A DNA stretch of 64,000 nucleotides from a virus: IMG/VR virus record IMGVR_UViG_3300021399_000016, positions 1,808 through 65,807 of that record; one strand, 5' to 3'. The stretch's first letter is position 1. The number at the start of each line of letters is the position of its first letter. Shown piece after piece: positions 4,183 through 16,769 of the stretch. Under the pieces are notes generated by a model. The model had not been told where the DNA came from. It was given only the letters and a program-made list of their open reading frames with translations, and ran no database searches. The translations under genes and the position numbers were made by a program.

Positions 4183-4684
4183 GTACTTCTGGCTTAACTA
4201 TGACAAGGAGAAAGCCCTTGCTTATTACAAGAGTCTTCTTGCAAAGAAAGCTGGAACTGAGTACCACGAGATTGCGAAGCAGTGCATTGACCATGGTATT
4301 CAGCTTAAAGGACGAAATACGTTAGCACGTTATGTGAACGATGCTATTGGATTCCGTATGCGTACTGAGCAGTTGCTCGTTTATTCAAAGTATTTCTTTG
4401 GTACTGCTGACGCTATTATATTTCAGGAAAAGGATAAGCTTCTTAGAATCCACGACTTGAAGACCGGCACCATCCCTGCTAAGCTCGACCAGTTACTCAT
4501 CTATGACGCGCTGTTCTGTCTTGAGTATCGGATTGATCCTTCAACGATTAATCATGAGCTTCGGATTTATCAGAATAATGAAATCCTTTCTGACAATCCT
4601 GATGCAGATCAGATCGCACCAATTATGGAAAAGATTCAATCTTTTAACCAGTTCATAGAAGAGTATGAAGAGGGCATAGTGTGA
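4121..4684 (+). CDS. PD-(D/E)xK (Cas4/RecB-like) exonuclease
   Basis: GTADAI...IHDLKTG...QLLIY. Confidence 0.7.
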   Translation: MKWNEHSKLLEGAHAPFGASKYFWLNYDKEKALAYYKSLLAKKAGTEYHEIAKQCIDHGIQLKGRNTLARYVNDAIGFRMRTEQLLVYSKYFFGTADAIIFQEKDKLLRIHDLKTGTIPAKLDQLLIYDALFCLEYRIDPSTINHELRIYQNNEILSDNPDADQIAPIMEKIQSFNQFIEEYEEGIV

Positions 4685-7563
4685 TGGACGAATTATATTT
4701 AGACGACTTAGATTTAAGTGAATTAATAATCGAACATTCTGGAGTCGCTCATGATGAGAATCCGCCAGGACGAGGTTCAGGTAGGTATGCGTATGGTTCT
4801 GGCGACAAACCAAACCAGAGAGAGCCGTTTTCTAATCCATACATTGAGAACATGAGAAAGAACGGATCTTCAGACAAAGAGATCTGTGATCTCATGAAGA
4901 AATCTGGCTTCACTGATGTTGATATTTACAAGAAGCTTCATAAGGCGGGCTGGAAAGACACAGAGATTGCTGAAGGTCTTGACATGAAGACAACTAAACT
5001 TCGTGCTAAGATCAGTATTGCAAAGTATGAACAGCAGGCCAATGATACAGCATCAGCAAGAGCAATGCACGAACAAGGTCTTAGCAACTCAGAGATTGGC
5101 AGAAGACTTGGAGTTTCGGAAGGAACAATCAGGAACTACCTTAATCCTGATATTTCACAGAAGAACGATATTCTTAAAACCACGGCCGATTCGCTTAAAG
5201 ATCTTGTCGCAGAAAAGAAATACATTGATATTGGTCCCGGCGCAGACTTAAGTCTTGGCGTTACTTCAACAAAGCTAGCAACAGCTGTAGCAATGCTTGA
5301 AGAAGAAGGTTACAAGAAGTTCTACGTTTACGAAGAACAGCTTGGCACTGGCAAGAAAACCACTATCACTGTGCTTGCACCTCCAGGCACTACCTATCCT
5401 GAACTAATGAACAATCGCGGTCAGATCAAGACCATCGATAATTATATTCAGGAAGGTGGTGAATTAAAGACTCGTCTCGGTATTGAACCACCAACCAGCG
5501 TTGATTCGTCAAGGATCCAGGTACGTTGGGCTGAAGATGGTGGTACAGACAGAGATGGAACTATAGAGATTAGACGAGGAGTCGAGGACTTGAGCCTTGG
5601 CTCCTCTTCTTATGCTCAGGTTCGTATTGCCGTGGATGGCACACATTATTTGAAAGGCATGGCCATCTATGGTAACGATGATGAGTTTGAACCAGGCAAG
5701 GACATTATATTTAATACCAACAAGAAAGAAGGCACACCTTTAATGCTTGATGATCCTGATGCTAAACAGGTATTCAAGCATTTAAAAGATGACCCCGACA
5801 ATCCCTTTGGCGCTTCTATAAAGATCAAAGATGGAAAGGTTGTTGGTCAGAGACACTACACTGGTGAGGATGGAAAAGATCACCTATCACCAGTCAACAT
5901 CATTAGAGAAGAAGGTGACTGGTCCGAATGGAGTAAGACACTTGCTTCTCAGATGCTGTCCAAACAGACGCCAGCATTAGCAACCAAACAGTTGAGGCTT
6001 GCTTATGAACAGAAGAAGGAAGAGTTTGAGGACTACATGTCTCTTACTAATCCAACTGTGAAGAAGAAGCTTCTTGAGGGCTTTGCTGAAGGTTGTGATG
6101 CAGCGGCAGTAAACTTGAAGGCGGCAGCTCTTCCTGGACAGCAGAACTATGTTATCTTACCTGTTCCTTCCATGAAGACAACTGAGATCTATGCACCTCG
6201 TTATGATAACGGTACTGAGTGTGTACTTATTCGTTACCCTCATGCTGGTCAGTTTGAGATCCCAAGACTAATTGTCAACAATAAGAATGCTGAAGCTAAG
6301 TCATTCATGTACAACGCAAAGGATGCCGTTGGTATTGCACCAAAGGTAGCCGAGCAGTTGTCTGGTGCAGACTTTGATGGTGATACTGTTCTTCTCATTC
6401 CTACCGCTAGACCTGATGGTACACGCATCTCTGATGTAAGAAACAAGAAGGCTATTCAGGAACTTGTGGACTTTAACCCCAAGATGTATGAGTATCCTGA
6501 TGGTGTCGAGCATAAGAAGATGAGCGACCACACTAAACAGGTTCAGATGGGTATGGTTTCGAACTTGATCACGGACATGACCATTGGTGGTGCATCACCA
6601 GAGGAGCTTGTGCGTGCAGTTAAGCACTCAATGGTGGTAATTGATGCACAGAAGCATGGTCTGAACTACAAGCAGTCAGAGAAAGACAATCGTATCGATG
6701 AGCTTAGACAGAAGTACCAGGCTAAAGAGAACGGCAAGGCAGGCGGTGCTAGTACTATCATTAGTAGGGCCTCTGCCGAACAAAGAATAGGGGTACGTAA
6801 AAGAAACTGGAAGCCCGATGCCGAAACAGGTGAGGTTACTTACAGAGAAACTCCTGAATACATTACTACAAGAAAAGTAATGCCTGATGGAACTGTCAAG
6901 GAAGAGACCAGGGAGCGTACTATAAAGACTACCCGGATGGCTTATGAAAAGGACGCCCGTAATCTAATGAGCGGCCCCAATCATGAAGGAATGCCAATCG
7001 AGAGGATCTACGCCAAGTATGCCAACGACATGAAGGCACTTGCAAACCAAGCACGTAAGGAAGCTCTGGATACCCCGCTTCTTCAAACCTCCCCCTCTGC
7101 TAAAAAGGTCTATGCTGCAGAAGTAGAGTCCTTGGAGAACAAGCTTAGGGAAGCCAAAAGTAACGCACCTAGAGAAAGACAGGCTCAGATACTAGCAAAT
7201 GAGTTCATGCGAGCTAAGAGAAAAGACGATCCTAATATGGATGCAGATCATCTCAAGAAAGCTAAGTCGTTGGCCCTTGCTAATGCAAGAGACATTGTTG
7301 GTGCTAAGAAGACAAAGATTGAGATAACAGACAAAGAATGGCAAGCTATTCAGTCTGGTGCTATTAGTGACAACAAATTACGTCAGATTCTTAACAATGC
7401 TGATGACAAAGCAATTAAACAGCTTGCTATGCCAAGAACAAACAACGAACTTAGCAATTCAAAACAAAGTTTAATTAAATCTATGAGTAGTTCAGGTTAT
7501 TCAATTGCCGAAATTGCTGAACGTTTAGACGTTTCTAGTTCGACAGTTAGCAAATACCTGTAA
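4681..7563 (+). CDS. putative single-subunit two-barrel RNA polymerase (YonO/cellular RdRP-like) with N- and C-terminal HTH domains
   Basis: DGTIEI, QVR..LKG, RYP, LSGADFDGD (6370-6384), GMVSNL, VIDAQKHG in the order seen in cellular RdRP/YonO; HTHs GLSNSEIGRRLGVSEGTIRNYL and GYSIAEIAERLDVSSSTVSKYL. Confidence 0.75.
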   Translation: MMDELYLDDLDLSELIIEHSGVAHDENPPGRGSGRYAYGSGDKPNQREPFSNPYIENMRKNGSSDKEICDLMKKSGFTDVDIYKKLHKAGWKDTEIAEGLDMKTTKLRAKISIAKYEQQANDTASARAMHEQGLSNSEIGRRLGVSEGTIRNYLNPDISQKNDILKTTADSLKDLVAEKKYIDIGPGADLSLGVTSTKLATAVAMLEEEGYKKFYVYEEQLGTGKKTTITVLAPPGTTYPELMNNRGQIKTIDNYIQEGGELKTRLGIEPPTSVDSSRIQVRWAEDGGTDRDGTIEIRRGVEDLSLGSSSYAQVRIAVDGTHYLKGMAIYGNDDEFEPGKDIIFNTNKKEGTPLMLDDPDAKQVFKHLKDDPDNPFGASIKIKDGKVVGQRHYTGEDGKDHLSPVNIIREEGDWSEWSKTLASQMLSKQTPALATKQLRLAYEQKKEEFEDYMSLTNPTVKKKLLEGFAEGCDAAAVNLKAAALPGQQNYVILPVPSMKTTEIYAPRYDNGTECVLIRYPHAGQFEIPRLIVNNKNAEAKSFMYNAKDAVGIAPKVAEQLSGADFDGDTVLLIPTARPDGTRISDVRNKKAIQELVDFNPKMYEYPDGVEHKKMSDHTKQVQMGMVSNLITDMTIGGASPEELVRAVKHSMVVIDAQKHGLNYKQSEKDNRIDELRQKYQAKENGKAGGASTIISRASAEQRIGVRKRNWKPDAETGEVTYRETPEYITTRKVMPDGTVKEETRERTIKTTRMAYEKDARNLMSGPNHEGMPIERIYAKYANDMKALANQARKEALDTPLLQTSPSAKKVYAAEVESLENKLREAKSNAPRERQAQILANEFMRAKRKDDPNMDADHLKKAKSLALANARDIVGAKKTKIEITDKEWQAIQSGAISDNKLRQILNNADDKAIKQLAMPRTNNELSNSKQSLIKSMSSSGYSIAEIAERLDVSSSTVSKYL

Positions 7564-9484: not shown

Positions 9485-10777
9485 GTGATAAAAATGCAAG
9501 GTTTGATTTCGGATGAACTTTATCACCACGGTATTCTTGGAATGAAATGGGGCGTAAGGCGTTACCAGAATGAGGACGGTTCCCTCACAGATGCCGGGCG
9601 TAAACGTTATACAAAGCTTACTAACAGAGTTAATAAACTTCGCACGAAAGCTGAGAAATACGATAAGAAAGCTGCTAAGGCCGAGAGAAGTGCTCATCGT
9701 TTTTGGTTTAGAGATGCCGAGGCTGCTTACGCTAAATATTCTAAGTTTAAGTACAAAGCTGAAGCAGCGAGAACCAAGGCCGATAAAATCGAGAAGAAGG
9801 TTAACGAATTAGCTAGAAACACTAGCATGAGAGAAGTTAACGGTATTCCTGATAGTATCAGGCGTGGAGTCTCTATCGTCGATAAAGTAAAGAGTGGATT
9901 GGACGAACGTAATCGTCAGAAAAAGATCGCGGAAGCGGCAGAAAAGCGTAAGGCTACAATAGAGGCTAAGAAGGCACATGCGGCAGAGAAGGAAGAAGCT
10001 CTTAGAAGTGGAGACCCTAATAAGGTTTCAAAATTTCAAAATGAGCTTACTAACGATGAATTAAGAGCTGCAACCGATCGTATTCGATTAACTGAAACTC
10101 TTAGAAGCCAGAGCGAAGCTAGAGTTAAGACAGGACTAGATAAGGCTGAGGAAATTATGGGCAAAGTTTCTAAAGCTAAAGATATTGCTGAACGCGGAAT
10201 TAGTGCATGGAATACGGCTGCGAAGATCCATAACTCTTTTGTTAATGAAAAAGAGAAGTGGCCCGTGATCGATGGAAGCGGAAAGAAGGAAGACAGATCT
10301 GCTATTAAGAAGACCATTGAGAGCGGAGATCCCGAGCAGATTGCTAAACTTAAAGGAAAGCTTTCTGTAAGTGAGACTTCTGATGCTGTCAAGTCGATCA
10401 ACAACTGGAAGAATATTAATGAAAATGCCGATAAGAATAGGCAGGCTAGAGCTGATGCTGAGTACCAAAAGAAGGAATCCGCAAGAGAGGCGGAAAAGCA
10501 GAGAGATCTGAACAGAGAGAAAATGTTTAGTCAGCGTGACTCTTTCGAAAGGAAGGAAGCGTCTAGAAGAGAACAGGAATCATTTGATAAAGAATACGAA
10601 GATGGCGTAAAAGCTGCTAGAGAGGCATTCAAAAGATATAGAGAATCTTCTCGTTCAAATACTACTGTAGAACCGACTTCTAGATTCGATCCCGATGATA
10701 GAGCGACTCCTCAAATGAGAATCGGCCAAGAGATAACTAAACAGTTACTTCTTGAAATGAAGAAAGATAAAAAATGA
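9485..10777 (+). CDS. coiled-coil protein with HHGILGMKWGVRR N-terminal motif (possible internal virion protein)
   Basis: DELYHHGILGMKWGVRRYQNEDGSLT then K/E/A/R-rich helices. Confidence 0.65.
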   Translation: MIKMQGLISDELYHHGILGMKWGVRRYQNEDGSLTDAGRKRYTKLTNRVNKLRTKAEKYDKKAAKAERSAHRFWFRDAEAAYAKYSKFKYKAEAARTKADKIEKKVNELARNTSMREVNGIPDSIRRGVSIVDKVKSGLDERNRQKKIAEAAEKRKATIEAKKAHAAEKEEALRSGDPNKVSKFQNELTNDELRAATDRIRLTETLRSQSEARVKTGLDKAEEIMGKVSKAKDIAERGISAWNTAAKIHNSFVNEKEKWPVIDGSGKKEDRSAIKKTIESGDPEQIAKLKGKLSVSETSDAVKSINNWKNINENADKNRQARADAEYQKKESAREAEKQRDLNREKMFSQRDSFERKEASRREQESFDKEYEDGVKAAREAFKRYRESSRSNTTVEPTSRFDPDDRATPQMRIGQEITKQLLLEMKKDKK

Positions 10778-10786
10778 GGATGAGTA

Positions 10787-12529
10787 ATGCTATCAAACAC
10801 AGCTACTCCTTATTATTATGGTTTGTTTAGAGAATCGGTGATTAGAGGAGAGATTCCTGTTTGCAGAGAAATCTCTATGGAGATGAACCGGATCGATAAA
10901 CTGATTGATGACCCTGGAGTTTGGTATGATAGAGACCCTGTTGAAGGCTGGATTCGTTATTGCGAGAACGAACTGACACTTACAGACGGTGGCGATCTTC
11001 ACCTATTAGATACATTTAAGCTTTGGGGAGAGCAGGTTTTTGGCTGGTACTACTTTATCGAACGATCCGTATACGAACCGAACGAAGATGGTCATGGCGG
11101 TCACTACGTTCGTAAGCTTATAAAGAAGCGACTTATCAATTACCAGTATCTGATAATTGGTCGAGGCGCTTCTAAGTCTATGTACGCTTCCTGCATTCAT
11201 TCTTACTTCTTAAACGTCGACACTTCTACAACAAAGCAAGTCGCTACGGCTCCTACAATGAGTCAGGCTGATGAAACTCTCTATCCGATCAGAACTTCCA
11301 TCGTTCGTGCTCGCGGACCTCTTTTTCAGTTCTTAACTGAAGGCTCACTTCAAAATACGACAGGTTCCAGAGCTAATAGGCAGAAGTTAGCGTCGACTAA
11401 GAAGGGTATCGAGAACTTTCTAACTGGCTCTCTTCTTGAAGTTAGACCTATGTCCATCGATAAGCTTCAGGGTAGAAGAGATAAGGTTGCTTCTGTTGAC
11501 GAGTGGCTTTCTGGAACTATCAGAGAAAACCCGATAAACGCTTTAGCTCAGGGTGCAGCTAAGAATGATGACTGGCTTATCGTCGCGACATCTTCCGAGG
11601 GAACGGTAAGACACGGAATTGGTGATGATATTAAGATGGAGCTAATGGAGATTCTTAAAGGAGAGTATGAGAATCCCCACGTATCTATCTGGTATTACAA
11701 ACTTGACGACATAGAAGAGGTTGGTAATCCTTCTATGTGGAGAAAAGCCAATCCCAATCTCGGAAAGACTGTTACTTATGAAACCTATCAGCTTGAAGTT
11801 GAGAAAGCCGAGAGGGTTCCATCATCCAGGAACGAGATCCTGGCAAAAAGATTCGACATTCCCATGGAAGGTTACACTTTCTTCTTTACTTATGAAGAAA
11901 CACTTCCGCATAGAAGAAGATCTTTTAAGAGACTTCCTTGCGCTCTAGGCGCTGACCTTTCTAGGGGTGACGACTTTTGCGCATTCACATTTCTGTTTCC
12001 GTTATCTGACGGATCGTTTGGCGTTAAGGTTAGATCATACATCACATCCTATACACTCGATCAACTCCCAAGAGCAATGCGAGAAAAGTATAACGATTTC
12101 ATCAATGAAGGTACGCTCATAATTATGGAGGGTACCGTTCTTTCCATGATGGAAGTTTACGAAGATCTTGACGACCACATTGTTCGGATGGATTACGATG
12201 TGCGGACGTTTGGTTTTGACCCTTATAATGCCACAGAATTTGTGGAGCGCTGGTGCAGAGAAAATGGGGAATTTGGAGTTTGTAAAGTGATTCAGGGATC
12301 TAAAACGGAGTCTGTTCCTCTTGGAGAACTTAAGAAGTACGCCGAGCAGCGTATGCTTCTCTTTGATGAAGAGCTTATGACTTTCACTATGGGTAACTCT
12401 GTGGTCCTTGAAGATACGAACGGTAACCGTAAACTTTATAAGGAGCGCAGAGATCAGAAGATCGATAACGTGGCGGCCATGATGGACGCTTATGTTTCGT
12501 ATAAGCTGAATACTGATGCGTTTGAGTGA
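10787..12529 (+). CDS. terL: terminase large subunit
   Basis: IIGRGASKS Walker A, VDEW Walker B, GADLSRGDDF nuclease motif, FDPYNA, KIDNVAA. Confidence 0.92.
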   Translation: MLSNTATPYYYGLFRESVIRGEIPVCREISMEMNRIDKLIDDPGVWYDRDPVEGWIRYCENELTLTDGGDLHLLDTFKLWGEQVFGWYYFIERSVYEPNEDGHGGHYVRKLIKKRLINYQYLIIGRGASKSMYASCIHSYFLNVDTSTTKQVATAPTMSQADETLYPIRTSIVRARGPLFQFLTEGSLQNTTGSRANRQKLASTKKGIENFLTGSLLEVRPMSIDKLQGRRDKVASVDEWLSGTIRENPINALAQGAAKNDDWLIVATSSEGTVRHGIGDDIKMELMEILKGEYENPHVSIWYYKLDDIEEVGNPSMWRKANPNLGKTVTYETYQLEVEKAERVPSSRNEILAKRFDIPMEGYTFFFTYEETLPHRRRSFKRLPCALGADLSRGDDFCAFTFLFPLSDGSFGVKVRSYITSYTLDQLPRAMREKYNDFINEGTLIIMEGTVLSMMEVYEDLDDHIVRMDYDVRTFGFDPYNATEFVERWCRENGEFGVCKVIQGSKTESVPLGELKKYAEQRMLLFDEELMTFTMGNSVVLEDTNGNRKLYKERRDQKIDNVAAMMDAYVSYKLNTDAFE

Positions 12530-12533
12530 AGAC

Positions 12534-13448
12534 ATGAGAGATGATATTTATGTTGGTGCTCTTTTTTCTGAAGAATATTTAATGCACCATGGAATTAAGG
12601 GTCAGAAGTGGGGCGTTAAACATGGACCGCCATATCCTCTTGATTCTAGCGTATCTAAGCGAGTGAAAAGCGGTAAAGATATAAGAGTTGCTAGTGGTAA
12701 GGATAATAAAAAAGATCCGGATTTACATAATAAAAAAGGTAGCAATAGAGAAGCGTATAAAATGGCTCTTAATATTGCGCTTGATGTGGCTACGTTAAAT
12801 CCTATTTGGGCTGTTCAGGATGCTGTTAGATTAGGTCAATATGCGTCTTCAAAAGTGAAGGCTAAAAACATTGCTAAACGTCAGTCTTTCGAAGAAATCG
12901 ATAAGAAAACCGGATTCCATAAAAAGTCAAAAGAAATGACTATGGACGAAGATGTTAAAAACGTGAATCCTAATTTTCATAACTTCAACAGCAATACGAA
13001 GAATAACTGTATGCTTTGTACGGTTACTTATGATATGAGAAGAAGAGGATATGACGTTACTGCTGAATTAGCAGGAAAAGGCTATGACTATAATTCTGTT
13101 AAGCAATGGTATCCAAAAGCTAAGATAGTAGATGTACGAGGCGGAAATCAGTCAGTTGCTAGAACGGCAATGCTTGGCGATAAGCGGTTGATGGATAATA
13201 CTAAGAGCGAAATCGAGAAGCAGCCAAACGGAGCTAGAGGAAATCTTATGGTTCAATGGTCAAATTTTCAGGGCGGTCACTCAATGGCTTATGAAGTGAT
13301 TGACGGAAAGATGCACATATTCGACGGGCAGACAGGAACGCACTATACGAATCCAGATAAAATTCTTAGACAGTGCAGACAAGTTTCTTATGCGAGATTA
13401 GATAATATTGAACCTGATTACAAGAGGGTAAAGGAGTGTTGCAAATGA
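12534..13448 (+). CDS. HHG-motif protein with C-terminal papain-fold (glutamine-deamidase-like) toxin domain
   Basis: YLMHHGIKGQKWGV leader; NNCMLC...GGHSM...IFDGQTG Cys-His-Asp triad. Confidence 0.65.
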   Translation: MRDDIYVGALFSEEYLMHHGIKGQKWGVKHGPPYPLDSSVSKRVKSGKDIRVASGKDNKKDPDLHNKKGSNREAYKMALNIALDVATLNPIWAVQDAVRLGQYASSKVKAKNIAKRQSFEEIDKKTGFHKKSKEMTMDEDVKNVNPNFHNFNSNTKNNCMLCTVTYDMRRRGYDVTAELAGKGYDYNSVKQWYPKAKIVDVRGGNQSVARTAMLGDKRLMDNTKSEIEKQPNGARGNLMVQWSNFQGGHSMAYEVIDGKMHIFDGQTGTHYTNPDKILRQCRQVSYARLDNIEPDYKRVKECCK

Positions 13449-13702
13449 TTACACCGTCAGAGGCTCTGAATAAGCTGAAGAAGAAGGAACCGTTGCTTAC
13501 CATAGTTGGCATGGTTGATTATAGCTCTAAATATTATCTTATTTCGGCAGTAGAAAATCCGAATATGCCGAATTTTAGCGGTAATTATTACGCTGTAGAT
13601 AAGAGGACCGGAGCCATTAGTTATTATACTCCTGGAGCTGATTTCGATAATTTCTTTGATGCCATTAATAATCGTGTCATCGATATCACCAAATTGAGGT
13701 AA
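13445..13702 (+). CDS. putative immunity protein
   Basis: Small ORF overlapping the toxin stop; YYAVDKRTG motif. Confidence 0.45.
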   Translation: MITPSEALNKLKKKEPLLTIVGMVDYSSKYYLISAVENPNMPNFSGNYYAVDKRTGAISYYTPGADFDNFFDAINNRVIDITKLR

Positions 13703-13711
13703 AAATTCAAA

Positions 13712-14980
13712 ATGCCAAAGTTTATGGAGCGTGTCCAGAATGCCTGGAACGCTTTTTTAAGTAGAAGCCCCACCGTTACTTATGATTATGGCGGTTTTGG
13801 CTACAGACCTGACAGAGTTAGGCTAAGCAGAAACAATGAAAGAACAATCGTAGCATCAATCTACAATAGAATCGCTTTGGATTGTGCAATGATTGACCTT
13901 CATCATGTAAATTGCGACGAAGACGGAAACTACAAAGAGATTAGAAAATCTGGACTCGAAAACTGTTTGACTACCAGCGCAAATCTGGATCAGACAGGTC
14001 GAGCTTTTATTATTGATGTGGTTATGTCTATGTTTGATGAAGGCTATGTTGCTGTGTTTCCAACAGATTGTTCTGATAATCCTTACTATACGGCTGACTA
14101 CGAGATCTTGAAGCTTAGAACTGGAAAGGTCATAAGTTGGTTTGCTGATAGGGTTAGGATTGATGTTTACAATGAGCGTCTTGGACGAAGAGAAGAAATC
14201 GTGGTTCCAAAGACTCATGTCGCGATTATTGAGAATCCTCTTTACGCGATCATGAATGAACCGAATGGAACTCTTCAGAGACTTATTAGGAAGCTAAGTC
14301 TCTTGGACTATGTGGACGAACAGACTAGTTCCGGAAAGCTCGACTTAATTATTCAGCTTCCTTACGTTATCAAGACGGAAGCCAGAAGGCAGCAGGCAGA
14401 AGAGCGTCGTAAAGACATTGAACGCCAGCTTTCTGGTTCTAAATACGGTATTGCTTATACTGATGGTACGGAGAGGATCACTCAGCTTAATCGTGCAGTA
14501 GAGAATAACCTCTGGGTGCAGGTAAAAGACTTGACAGCTATGCTCTACAACCAGTTGGGACTCACTGAGTCTATTCTTAATGGCACGGCTAAAGAGGAGG
14601 AAATGATCAACTACTATAACCGAACTGTCGACCCGATTCTTGCAGCAATCGCAGAGGAGATGCAACGAAAGTTTATTTCTCCAACTGCTAGGACTCAGGG
14701 TCAGGCAATTAAGTACTTTAGAGATCCGTTCCGTCTTATTCCGGTTAGCGCTATTGCGGAGATCGCAGATAAGCTTACTAGAAACGAGATTCTTAGCTCC
14801 AACGAGATCAGAACGAAGATCGGCTTTAGACCTTCTAGCGATCCGGCTGCTGATGAACTCCGTAACAGTAACCTTAATCGATCTGATAACGAGAAACCGG
14901 CAGAAGCGCCAGAAGCTAACAGAAAGGCTGCGACGCAGAAAGCTTTGAAGGAGAAAAATCAAAATGGCGAGAAAGTATGA
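13712..14980 (+). CDS. portal protein
   Basis: 422 aa between TerL and capsid; IYNRIALD...NEIRTKIG HK97-like portal pattern. Confidence 0.88.
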   Translation: MPKFMERVQNAWNAFLSRSPTVTYDYGGFGYRPDRVRLSRNNERTIVASIYNRIALDCAMIDLHHVNCDEDGNYKEIRKSGLENCLTTSANLDQTGRAFIIDVVMSMFDEGYVAVFPTDCSDNPYYTADYEILKLRTGKVISWFADRVRIDVYNERLGRREEIVVPKTHVAIIENPLYAIMNEPNGTLQRLIRKLSLLDYVDEQTSSGKLDLIIQLPYVIKTEARRQQAEERRKDIERQLSGSKYGIAYTDGTERITQLNRAVENNLWVQVKDLTAMLYNQLGLTESILNGTAKEEEMINYYNRTVDPILAAIAEEMQRKFISPTARTQGQAIKYFRDPFRLIPVSAIAEIADKLTRNEILSSNEIRTKIGFRPSSDPAADELRNSNLNRSDNEKPAEAPEANRKAATQKALKEKNQNGEKV

Positions 14981-16769
14981 CTTCGCAGGTTGGGCGACAA
15001 AGAACGATCTCCTCTGCACCGACGGACGGACGATCAGAAAAGACGCCTTTAAAGATTGCGATGGGATTACGGTTCCGCTTGTTTACCAGCATGATCATAA
15101 AGATCCTACAAACGTCCTTGGACACTGTCTCTTAGAGAACAGAGCCGAGGGCGTTTATTGTTACGGATATTTTAACGATTCTGAAAAGGCTAGACACGCT
15201 AAGGAGTCTCTTAAGAACAAGGATATTACTAGACTTTCTATTTATGCGAATCACCTTAAGCAGAACGCTGGAGACGTTCTTCACGGAATGATCAGAGAAG
15301 TAAGTCTTGTACTCACCGGAGCAAATCCGGGAGCGAAGATTGAGACTGTTCTCGGTCATGCTGAAGAATTTGACGAGGAGGCCGTAATCACCACAGGAGA
15401 GGAGTTAGTAACCGATATGGAAGACGAGAACATCGTTGTTCATGCAGACGAAGAGGCCGACTCTAAGCCGAAGGAGACAGAAGAGTCTGGTGATTCCGAT
15501 GAGACTATTGAAGATGTGTTTAACACTCTGAACGAGAAGCAGAAGAAAGCCGTTTATGCGCTTATTGGTCTTGCTATTCAGGACAAAGGCAAGAATGACG
15601 GCGAAGCAAAACATTCCGAAGATGAAAATGAAGGAGAAGAAGATATGAAGTACAACGCTTTTGAAGGTGGCGCTCCGAGAAAGACTACTATTTCTCACGA
15701 CGATTTTAAGGTAATCATGGCTGATGCCAAGAGATGCGGTTCCCTTAAGGAAGCGGTCCTTGCGCACATGGAAGATGAAGATGGTGTTCTTGCACATCTT
15801 GATCCTGAAGTTACTGAGGGTATGACCCTTTCCCAGGACAAGCAGAACTACATGGTGAACGATCCGGCTTTCCTGTTCCCGGATTATAAGTCTCTTAACA
15901 ATCCGCCCGAGTACATTAAGCGAGATACCGGATGGGTTTCTAAGGTTATGGGTAAGGTTGGACATACTCCGTTTGCTCGTATTAAGTCCGTGTTTGCCGA
16001 TATCACTGAAGACGAAGCAAGAGCAAAGGGTTACATGAAGACCAATCTTAAGAAAGACGAGGTCTTCAGCCTGCTTAAGAGAACCACCGATCCGCAGACC
16101 GTCTACAAGAGACAGAAGATGGACCGTGATGATATTATCGATATCACCGACTTTGATGTTGTTCGTTGGATCAAGGCTGAGATGAGAGAGATGCTTAATG
16201 AGGAAATCGCTCGTGCCATCCTCATCGGCGATGGTCGTCTCAACTCTTCCGACGATAAGATCTCCGAGGATCACATCCGTCCGGTTGTTTCCGATAAGCC
16301 GCTCTTCACTGTTAAGGTCGATGTTGAGGTTGCTGCTGACGCTAAGCCCTCTGATATCGCAGAAGAGTTCATCGATCAGGCTATCAGAGCTCGTAAGCAG
16401 TATAAGGGTTCTGGTAATCCGGATCTTTATACCACTGAGGACATGCTCACCGAGATGCTCCTTCTTAAGGACGGTATCGGTCACAAGCTTTACAAGACCG
16501 AGCAGGAGCTCTGCACTGCTCTTCGTGTGAATTCTATTATTACCGTTGAGGTCATGGAAGGCTTCAAGCTTGATAATAAGGATTTCCTTGGAGTTATTGT
16601 TAACCTTGCTGACTACAGAGTTGGTGCTGACAAGGGTGGCGCTCTTGAGCTGTTCGATGACTTCGATATTGACTACAACCAGTACAAGTACCTGCTTGAG
16701 ACTCGTATCTCTGGTGCTCTGGTGAAACCGTTCTCTGCGCTGTCCTTCACTGTTAAGAAGACGGCTTGA
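14964..16769 (+). CDS. prohead protease - scaffold - major capsid protein fusion
   Basis: Protease motifs VPLVYQHDH, LSIYA, EVSLVLTGANPGA; acidic linker; HK97-like capsid C-terminus (EEIARAILIGDG, ETRISGAL). Confidence 0.88.
   Translation: MARKYDFAGWATKNDLLCTDGRTIRKDAFKDCDGITVPLVYQHDHKDPTNVLGHCLLENRAEGVYCYGYFNDSEKARHAKESLKNKDITRLSIYANHLKQNAGDVLHGMIREVSLVLTGANPGAKIETVLGHAEEFDEEAVITTGEELVTDMEDENIVVHADEEADSKPKETEESGDSDETIEDVFNTLNEKQKKAVYALIGLAIQDKGKNDGEAKHSEDENEGEEDMKYNAFEGGAPRKTTISHDDFKVIMADAKRCGSLKEAVLAHMEDEDGVLAHLDPEVTEGMTLSQDKQNYMVNDPAFLFPDYKSLNNPPEYIKRDTGWVSKVMGKVGHTPFARIKSVFADITEDEARAKGYMKTNLKKDEVFSLLKRTTDPQTVYKRQKMDRDDIIDITDFDVVRWIKAEMREMLNEEIARAILIGDGRLNSSDDKISEDHIRPVVSDKPLFTVKVDVEVAADAKPSDIAEEFIDQAIRARKQYKGSGNPDLYTTEDMLTEMLLLKDGIGHKLYKTEQELCTALRVNSIITVEVMEGFKLDNKDFLGVIVNLADYRVGADKGGALELFDDFDIDYNQYKYLLETRISGALVKPFSALSFTVKKTA

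Follow-up and report, generated by a model that had tools for sequence, protein, structure and literature searches.

Tox-PL1 domains, which are defined by an NC-H-DxQ signature, have been described as fusions to MuF in the head modules of prophages, and the relevant passages of Zhang et al. 2012 (PMC3482391) leave open whether they act as toxins or as processing peptidases; the same passages tie an immunity family, Imm35, to Tox-PL1. Polyvalent proteins, described in Iyer et al. 2017 (PMC5512222), are proposed in the sections drawn on here to be packaged, injected and cut by embedded peptidases. Phage-borne Tox-PL1 domains and head-packaged toxins are already known, but their carrier is MuF only; what is new at the locus described here is a candidate carrier, a short disordered motif of ~25 residues that heads dozens of unrelated modules.

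The window, that is, the whole stretch of 64,000 nucleotides analysed, is nearly all of a 65.8-kb virus record that has direct terminal repeats and is rated complete. The genes that frame the locus are the following.

4681-7563, YonO-like RNA polymerase (phrog_4291, E 0)
9485..10777, + strand, second DUF7211 protein, 430 aa, with its motif at 9524-9553 and a charged, coiled-coil-like remainder
10787..12529, + strand, terminase large subunit, TerL (Pfam, PHROGs)
12533..13695, unstranded, cassette slot, a stretch that L089 and L090, the closest relatives, lack (blastn)
13712..14980, + strand, portal protein (Pfam, PHROGs)
14964..16769, + strand, fusion of prohead protease (S78) and major capsid protein (Pfam, PHROGs)

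Small genes, including an HNH endonuclease, lie between the polymerase and the 430-aa protein in the order of reading frames. The prohead protease and the major capsid protein form a single 601-aa frame, as they do in phage 1706 and actinophage relatives; the stretch examined around window positions 14964-16769 showed no separate gene for a scaffolding protein. Across the genome, no integrase or resolvase was matched by any profile. The same layout is reported, in the part of bioRxiv 10.1101/842583 consulted, for a supergroup of Streptomyces BI phages, Lactococcus phage 1706 and Faecalibacterium phage FP_oengus. The genome that hosts the locus would be that of a gut-type, virulent-looking siphophage of this Lactococcus 1706 / Faecalibacterium FP_oengus / actinophage supergroup, an assignment that belongs to an overall explanation given about even chances.

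An earlier note, made from the sequence alone, had placed a toxin-like gene pair between terminase and portal, and the Pfam and PHROG matches of the two flanking genes bear out this position. The pair, an enzyme and a small partner, is an accessory cassette. In L089 and L090 the terminase stop abuts the portal start in an exact junction, and in other relatives the slot is occupied by different motif genes. When 80 loci were chosen by terminase alone, 50 spanned the upstream marker, terminase and portal; within these 50 the enzyme is present in four and the partner in six (both in three, enzyme only in one, partner only in three), and at least one protein with the DUF7211 motif, up to five, is present in 47. 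The features of the pair in the window are as follows, with enzyme residues numbered according to a 310-aa form of the protein.

12534..13448, + strand, DUF7211-linker-Tox-PL1 gene, 304 aa from ATG 12534
12585..12614, + strand, HHGIKGQKWG core of the DUF7211 leader, residues 24-33, predicted to be disordered
12747..12887, + strand, predicted helical hairpin linker, conserved and moderately hydrophobic, residues 78-124
12897..13445, + strand, putative papain-fold Tox-PL1 / Gln_amidase-like domain, residues about 128-310
13008-13010, + strand, catalytic candidate C165
13278-13280, + strand, catalytic candidate H255
13323-13325, + strand, catalytic candidate D270
13329-13331, + strand, catalytic candidate Q272
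13430..13436, + strand, AAAGGAG, a Shine-Dalgarno-like site read from the sequence, 8 nt upstream of ATG 13445
13445..13702, + strand, small partner gene, 85 aa from ATG 13445, PepSY-like alpha-beta4-alpha protein, predicted active-site inhibitor

For the enzyme gene ATG 12534 is the probable start, favoured by a database protein of 304 aa that is 100% identical; an alternative ATG at 12516 in the same frame would give the 310-aa form. Six residues of the enzyme (N164, C165, C168, H255, D270 and Q272) are invariant in an alignment of 32 homologues, and N164-C165, H255 and D270-x-Q272 correspond to the NC-H-DxQ signature of Tox-PL1; the C-terminal NC..GH..DGQ pattern pointed out in the earlier note is real and conserved. 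The Pfam model Gln_amidase (PF15644) matches residues 163-274 of the window enzyme over profile positions 1-113 of 114 with 23.0 bits (E 1.8e-4), below the curated cut-off of 24.1; it scores 37.3 bits on the protein P0122 and 26.5 bits on Secretariat gp15, and enzyme homologues of 40-48% identity carry it. The whole enzyme protein is matched by 513 database proteins at E <= 1e-3, and among the matches listed 109 of 120 enzyme homologues carry PF15644 and/or PF23847 (the Pfam model of DUF7211) by our own count. A search of IMG/VR with the single enzyme protein returned no relative; an alignment-based search found relatives.

The AF2 model of the enzyme (pLDDT 76.2, pTM 0.71) has a globular domain that is mostly above 88 and a leader, residues 1-40, that falls below 50 and is predicted to be disordered. 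Its best structural match is SpvD (Z 11.5, rmsd 3.0, 150 residues aligned; VIA-align), and further matches found with the exhaustive aligner are YopQ (Z 10.4), C39 peptidases (Z 8.5-8.7) and OspI (Z 8.4). All 50 listed structural matches look like papain-like or related cysteine-hydrolase folds, judging from their titles, and a Foldseek search of the model against the PDB gave nothing at E <= 1e-3. The assignment of the C-terminal domain to papain-fold Tox-PL1, which had been proposed from the triad, is largely supported, in that the signature, the near-threshold Pfam match and the predicted papain-like fold agree.

The ATG of the partner gene (13445-13447) overlaps the enzyme stop TGA (13446-13448) as ATGA, so the overlapping small gene that had been noticed is real as to its position; reading of the sequence makes this start likelier than an alternative GTG at 13436, which would give 88 aa. 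For a census of partners, 83 enzyme-domain ORFs in 80 IMG/VR loci were collected with the enzyme family. An ORF lies immediately downstream of 80 of them, the other three being at the end of a contig, and of the 60 distinct proteins of <=130 aa encoded there, 57 fall into a single family together with the window partner; in eight enzyme ORFs the partner domain is fused N-terminally, ahead of the motif. Gordonia phage Secretariat gp16 also matches the family (E 2e-16). In a more distant set from bacterial genomes, mostly Clostridia, a first pass detected an adjacent partner by profile for 15 of 43 enzyme ORFs; of the other 27, 22 are followed directly by an ORF of 55-130 aa, 13 of which match the partner family in a smaller search.

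PepSY (PF03413) is matched weakly by 11 of the 57 family members (best E 4.5e-4), and the window partner itself has no Pfam match at E <= 0.1. The model of the partner (pLDDT 91.8) consists of a helix on a four-stranded sheet and a second helix. Its three best structural matches, CD1622, YpeB-C and YpmB, have modest scores (Z 6.5, 6.4 and 5.9), and a Z below 8 can reflect a common fold only. Pfam contains an Imm35 model, and the Pfam matches of the 57 partners (E <= 0.1) include no immunity family. The partner looks more like a PepSY-type protease inhibitor or prodomain than like a member of a known immunity family. The complex of enzyme and partner was modelled with a score of 0.75, a mark that 58 of 80 solved complexes attain, as against 2 of 110 mismatched pairs, whereas the best of three controls scored 0.00. 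Contacts agreed between runs by at least 79%, with a partner pLDDT of at least 85, and the modelled interface takes in enzyme residues 154-166, 245-256, 270 and 272, which include all the catalytic candidates; the small protein is predicted to bind over the catalytic site. Of the immunity gene that the earlier note had implied, what stands is a dedicated partner that is conserved, sometimes fused and predicted to sit on the active site; its kinship would be PepSY-like rather than with a known immunity family.

The HHGxxGxKWG motif of the leader is the Pfam domain DUF7211 (PF23847), a profile of 25 positions. A search of the 65.8-kb record gave exactly two matches, the 430-aa protein (40.8 bits) and the enzyme protein (30.0 bits, above the cut-off); with hmmscan the scores were 36.8 bits and, for the enzyme protein, 26.2 bits against a cut-off of 27. 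When the two proteins were compared by BLASTP, the leader alone aligned (14 of 26 residues identical, E 3e-5), with nothing beyond it below E 2, in accord with the view that a leader is common to two otherwise unrelated proteins. Pfam lists only a domain of unknown function, and a search of the literature found no paper on DUF7211 or its motif.

Motif proteins are numerous and their C-termini are diverse. The first 80 loci contain 4,624 ORFs, of which 243 have the motif. Every one of the 243 is on the strand of the head module, and the motif starts at a median of residue 15; they comprise 67 enzyme proteins and 176 others. The 217 distinct motif proteins fall into 85 C-terminal clusters, so that the catalogue called for earlier shows C-termini that are far from invariant. 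DUF7211 itself is matched in 95 of 99 non-enzyme representatives, few of which have a known domain (GNAT, CW_7, DUF2262 and DUF4258, each in a single member); 13 of the 99 match a PHROG named 'virion structural protein', and the protein with CW_7 repeats also matches endolysin PHROGs. When 8,000 candidates were scored with a profile built from 72 leaders, 7,929 proteins had E <= 0.01. The best 120 of these, ranked by summed score and hence biased towards repeats, have two to six copies of the motif each, and some of the 120 are polyproteins of up to 1,872 aa. Six of the best 120 were checked with Pfam and have four to six DUF7211 hits; two have the enzyme domain at their end and two contain GNAT. 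In P0121 and P0122 the enzyme domain is the last module after five or six motifs, while P0124, P0125, P0127 and P0131 have four to six motifs without the enzyme domain.

The motif spans the Lactococcus 1706 / FP_oengus / actinophage supergroup, with hosts among Actinobacteria and Firmicutes. In Secretariat, gp15 has the order motif-GNAT-motif-enzyme and is followed by the partner gp16, and gp12, gp14 and gp17 also bear motifs. In Rhodococcus phage ReqiPepy6, eight motif proteins are encoded in the vicinity of terminase and portal. The complete genome of Streptomyces phage HazuAndZazu encodes five, one of them with HExxH, and that of FP_oengus one; neither of these two complete genomes has a PF15644 match at E <= 1. 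The motif is a module-boundary element and is not strictly N-terminal. As an N-terminal module, which is how the earlier note saw it, the leader does head interchangeable C-termini, but it also marks internal boundaries in polyproteins.

Several further observations concern the modules that the motif accompanies. In Secretariat gp12 (L083) and ReqiPepy6 gp013 (L244) the motif lies at residue 343-358, so that it can trail a module, and the N-terminal region of both has two H-x-T-L-type motifs that, in our own reading, recall 2H phosphoesterases. One motif-led family, ending in G-Y-(G/D)-A-(I/V)-(L/V)-D...D-A, is common to actinophages and gut phages (HazuAndZazu gp8, L085; Secretariat gp17, L083; L042:4128-5006), and another, A-K-M-F-Y-G-E-G-A-G-T-R-R-K-L-I, is found in 150 cultured phage records. 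A membrane-like stretch (a 19-residue Kyte-Doolittle mean >=1.6), at a median of ~80 residues downstream of the motif, is present in 22% of 378 motif proteins versus 7% of control ORFs (loci L003-L166); a hydrophobic stretch of this kind was rejected as a defining trait. Within 40 residues upstream of internal motifs, HSD is enriched (77 of 279 contexts versus 8.3 expected; P0121-P0240) and HS[DEN] occurs in 81 of the 279, the H/Q-S/M/F-D element being 6-25 residues upstream of the motif. The linker of the protease-capsid fusion in the window has K-H-S-E-D and G-H-A-E-E (residues about 131 and 216). A general cleavage rule based on the HSD-like element was rejected, as a similar element is found in only 17 of 80 protease-capsid fusions.

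Two other kinds of leader-bearing gene lie upstream. The gene just upstream of terminase always bears a leader and encodes a highly charged protein of 310-732 aa with a conserved C-terminal part (window 9485-10777; L089:2174-3106; L090:2909-5107; L091:2029-4116; ORF7 of phage 1706), and in some relatives it has gained extra modules such as GNAT and second leaders. All 34 full-length homologues of the YonO-like polymerase examined (window 4681-7563, leader at about 4720-4800) begin with a conserved leader, which by eye consists of an L-x-H-Y-G-type element (one cut at the end of its contig) and then S-G-R-Y-(P)-x-G-S-G; 13 of the 34 match the stricter PG[RP]GSGR[YF]. The polymerase leader ORFs include those of loci L114, L169 and L196. 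In L090 and L091 the polymerase-type leader is also found at internal module boundaries of pre-terminase proteins, and other proteins (L110, L167) begin with it; it seems to be a sister element to the DUF7211 leader.

The leader-bearing system had been called non-MuF, and this is correct for the genome: MuF (PF04233) has no match at E <= 1 in the complete 65.8-kb record, and control genomes did match. In Arthrobacter and Mycobacterium phages the enzyme domain ends MuF-like head proteins and is followed by a small gene, a cultured example being Arthrobacter phage Altadena, where gp4 combines the MuF-like part with the enzyme domain and gp5 is the small protein. The one hint towards a virion location comes from Lactococcus phage 1706, whose ORF7 (L245:2501-3889) has two motifs, lies just upstream of TerL like the 430-aa protein and is annotated in the database as 'structural protein', a label that presumably rests on mass spectrometry. 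Gene position and this annotation suggest that the DUF7211 motif may load proteins into the virion.

In the preferred explanation, which is judged to have an even chance of being correct, the pair is an accessory cargo cassette in which a Tox-PL1 enzyme, paired with a PepSY-like inhibitor, is tagged by DUF7211 for uptake into the procapsid and ejection. The enzyme would be a papain-fold Cys-His-Asp protein of the Tox-PL1 type (glutamine deamidase or peptidase) behind a disordered leader and a helical linker, and the translationally coupled small protein would bind over the catalytic cleft and keep it silent in the producing cell. DUF7211 would be a short linear motif that starts each of many interchangeable modules around terminase and portal, encoded as separate genes or as polyproteins, and may be the handle by which these modules are taken up into the procapsid and perhaps cut apart there. 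The enzyme might then leave the head together with the DNA, to act on some target inside the next cell infected; speculatively, the fusions with the order partner-motif-enzyme would fit activation by a cut at the motif. Several points count against the cargo cassette: the leader is disordered in the model, the Gln_amidase score of the window enzyme and its hmmscan score for DUF7211 are just under the curated cut-offs, Foldseek gave no PDB match for the enzyme model at E <= 1e-3, and the first-pass detection of partners in the distant bacterial set was 15 of 43. With no integrase or resolvase, the phage has no obvious need for 'immunity' of the polymorphic-toxin type. Should the inhibitor remain in place, what is packaged would be an inactive enzyme.

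The papain-like domain might instead be a processing ('releasing') peptidase that cuts DUF7211 proteins near the motif at assembly and is not directed at the host, with the PepSY-like protein as a prodomain-type timer, a joint reading that is considered unlikely. Such a releasing role for Tox-PL1 in some architectures, and processing in phage-derived capsid systems, are proposed in passages of PMC3482391, and the final position of the domain in P0121 and P0122, the C39 leader peptidases among the best structural matches, the PepSY family of protease propeptides and the prodomain-like fusions of the partner ahead of the motif in eight ORFs are all consistent with it. However, 46 of the 50 terminase-selected relatives are without the enzyme and 44 of those 46 keep one to five motif proteins, HazuAndZazu and FP_oengus have motif proteins without a PF15644 match, and four of the polyproteins have motifs without the domain. 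Because the enzyme is missing from most motif-bearing relatives it cannot be a general processing enzyme, and the idea of an obligatory processor of all motif proteins was rejected; it could process its own cassette.

It is rather improbable that the pair is a toxin-antitoxin-like or exclusion moron that works inside the infected or lysogenic cell and is unrelated to the virion, its leader being a recombination linker or something else. Precise insertion between two core genes, a tight enzyme-inhibitor pair and relatives in bacterial chromosomes, such as a 3.56-Mb complete Clostridiales genome, would be expected of a moron, and a conserved boundary motif could simply promote the shuffling of modules; yet the cassette, like every one of the 243 motif ORFs, is located in the head/packaging module and on its strand, Arthrobacter and Mycobacterium phages have the enzyme domain attached to MuF-like head proteins, and the motif is strongly conserved at the protein level with two to six sites per polypeptide, for which a linker acting at the DNA level alone is insufficient. 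A virion-associated cell-wall hydrolase, NlpC/P60- or CHAP-like, that aids the entry of DNA through Gram-positive peptidoglycan is very improbable: the signature and the Pfam match are those of Tox-PL1 and not of CHAP or NlpC/P60, and a cytoplasmic active-site inhibitor would be unusual for such an enzyme, against which can be set the weaker structural matches to PeiR (Z 8.3), a T6SS amidase effector (Z 5.6) and a phage endolysin (Z 5.1) and the one motif protein with CW_7 repeats and endolysin PHROG matches.

A broader reading is possible, if doubtful, in which DUF7211 is a portable signal for capsid loading and processing, and heads across the whole supergroup (Lactococcus 1706, FP_oengus, Streptomyces BI, Gordonia DJ, Rhodococcus Pepy6 and many phages of gut and rumen) are stocked with a varying set of enzymes to be injected. 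The L-x-H-Y-G ... S-G-R-Y-P-W-G-S-G leader would in the same manner load the YonO-like RNA polymerase, and the motif would be a general tag for the delivery of phage proteins into Gram-positive cells. How Gram-positive siphophages pick the proteins that travel with their DNA becomes a testable question, several of the motif-carrying members of the supergroup being cultured and easy to handle, and the motif proteins point to a large reservoir, as yet unexplored, of candidate enzymes for host takeover or anti-defence.

Compared with MuF polymorphic toxins, as described in parts of PMC3482391 and Jamet et al. 2017 (PMC5576092), the enzyme protein is likewise a head-module protein with a C-terminal toxin-type domain, Tox-PL1 included, and a small gene after it, and packing into the capsid is predicted for the MuF toxins too. 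It differs in having no MuF; its N-terminal part is a disordered motif of ~25 residues, DUF7211, and not a folded domain. MuF toxins belong, in the same sources as far as they were drawn on, to temperate phages, whereas this phage has no integrase. The polyvalent proteins of PMC5512222 also string together unrelated enzymatic modules (GNAT, peptidases) in portal-terminase phages, according to its relevant sections, and none of the terms 'papain-like', 'linker' and 'conserved motif' appears in its text; here, in contrast, each module is headed by one conserved motif and modules also occur as separate genes.

The modelled partner resembles the PepSY / YpeB domain (PF03413) in its helix packed on a four-stranded sheet. 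PepSY is an inhibitor of M4 metalloproteases and, to our knowledge, has not been described as an inhibitor of papain-like enzymes; if the model is right, the pair would add a PepSY-type inhibitor of such an enzyme. The internal proteins of phage T4, which are unrelated head-packaged and injected proteins, have in common a short N-terminal capsid-targeting peptide that can carry foreign cargo. DUF7211 is likewise a short peptide on otherwise unrelated proteins, and a role in targeting or cleavage may be supposed by analogy; it has no sequence likeness to the T4 capsid-targeting sequence and, unlike it, is also found internally and in tandem. With polymorphic toxin systems in general the motif proteins share the combination of a common N-terminal part and diverse C-terminal domains (217 proteins in 85 clusters), and the conserved downstream neighbour of the enzyme is predicted by the complex model to bind it. 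The pair is best regarded as a variant of the known phage-borne Tox-PL1 systems, the MuF-type polymorphic toxins and the polyvalent proteins.
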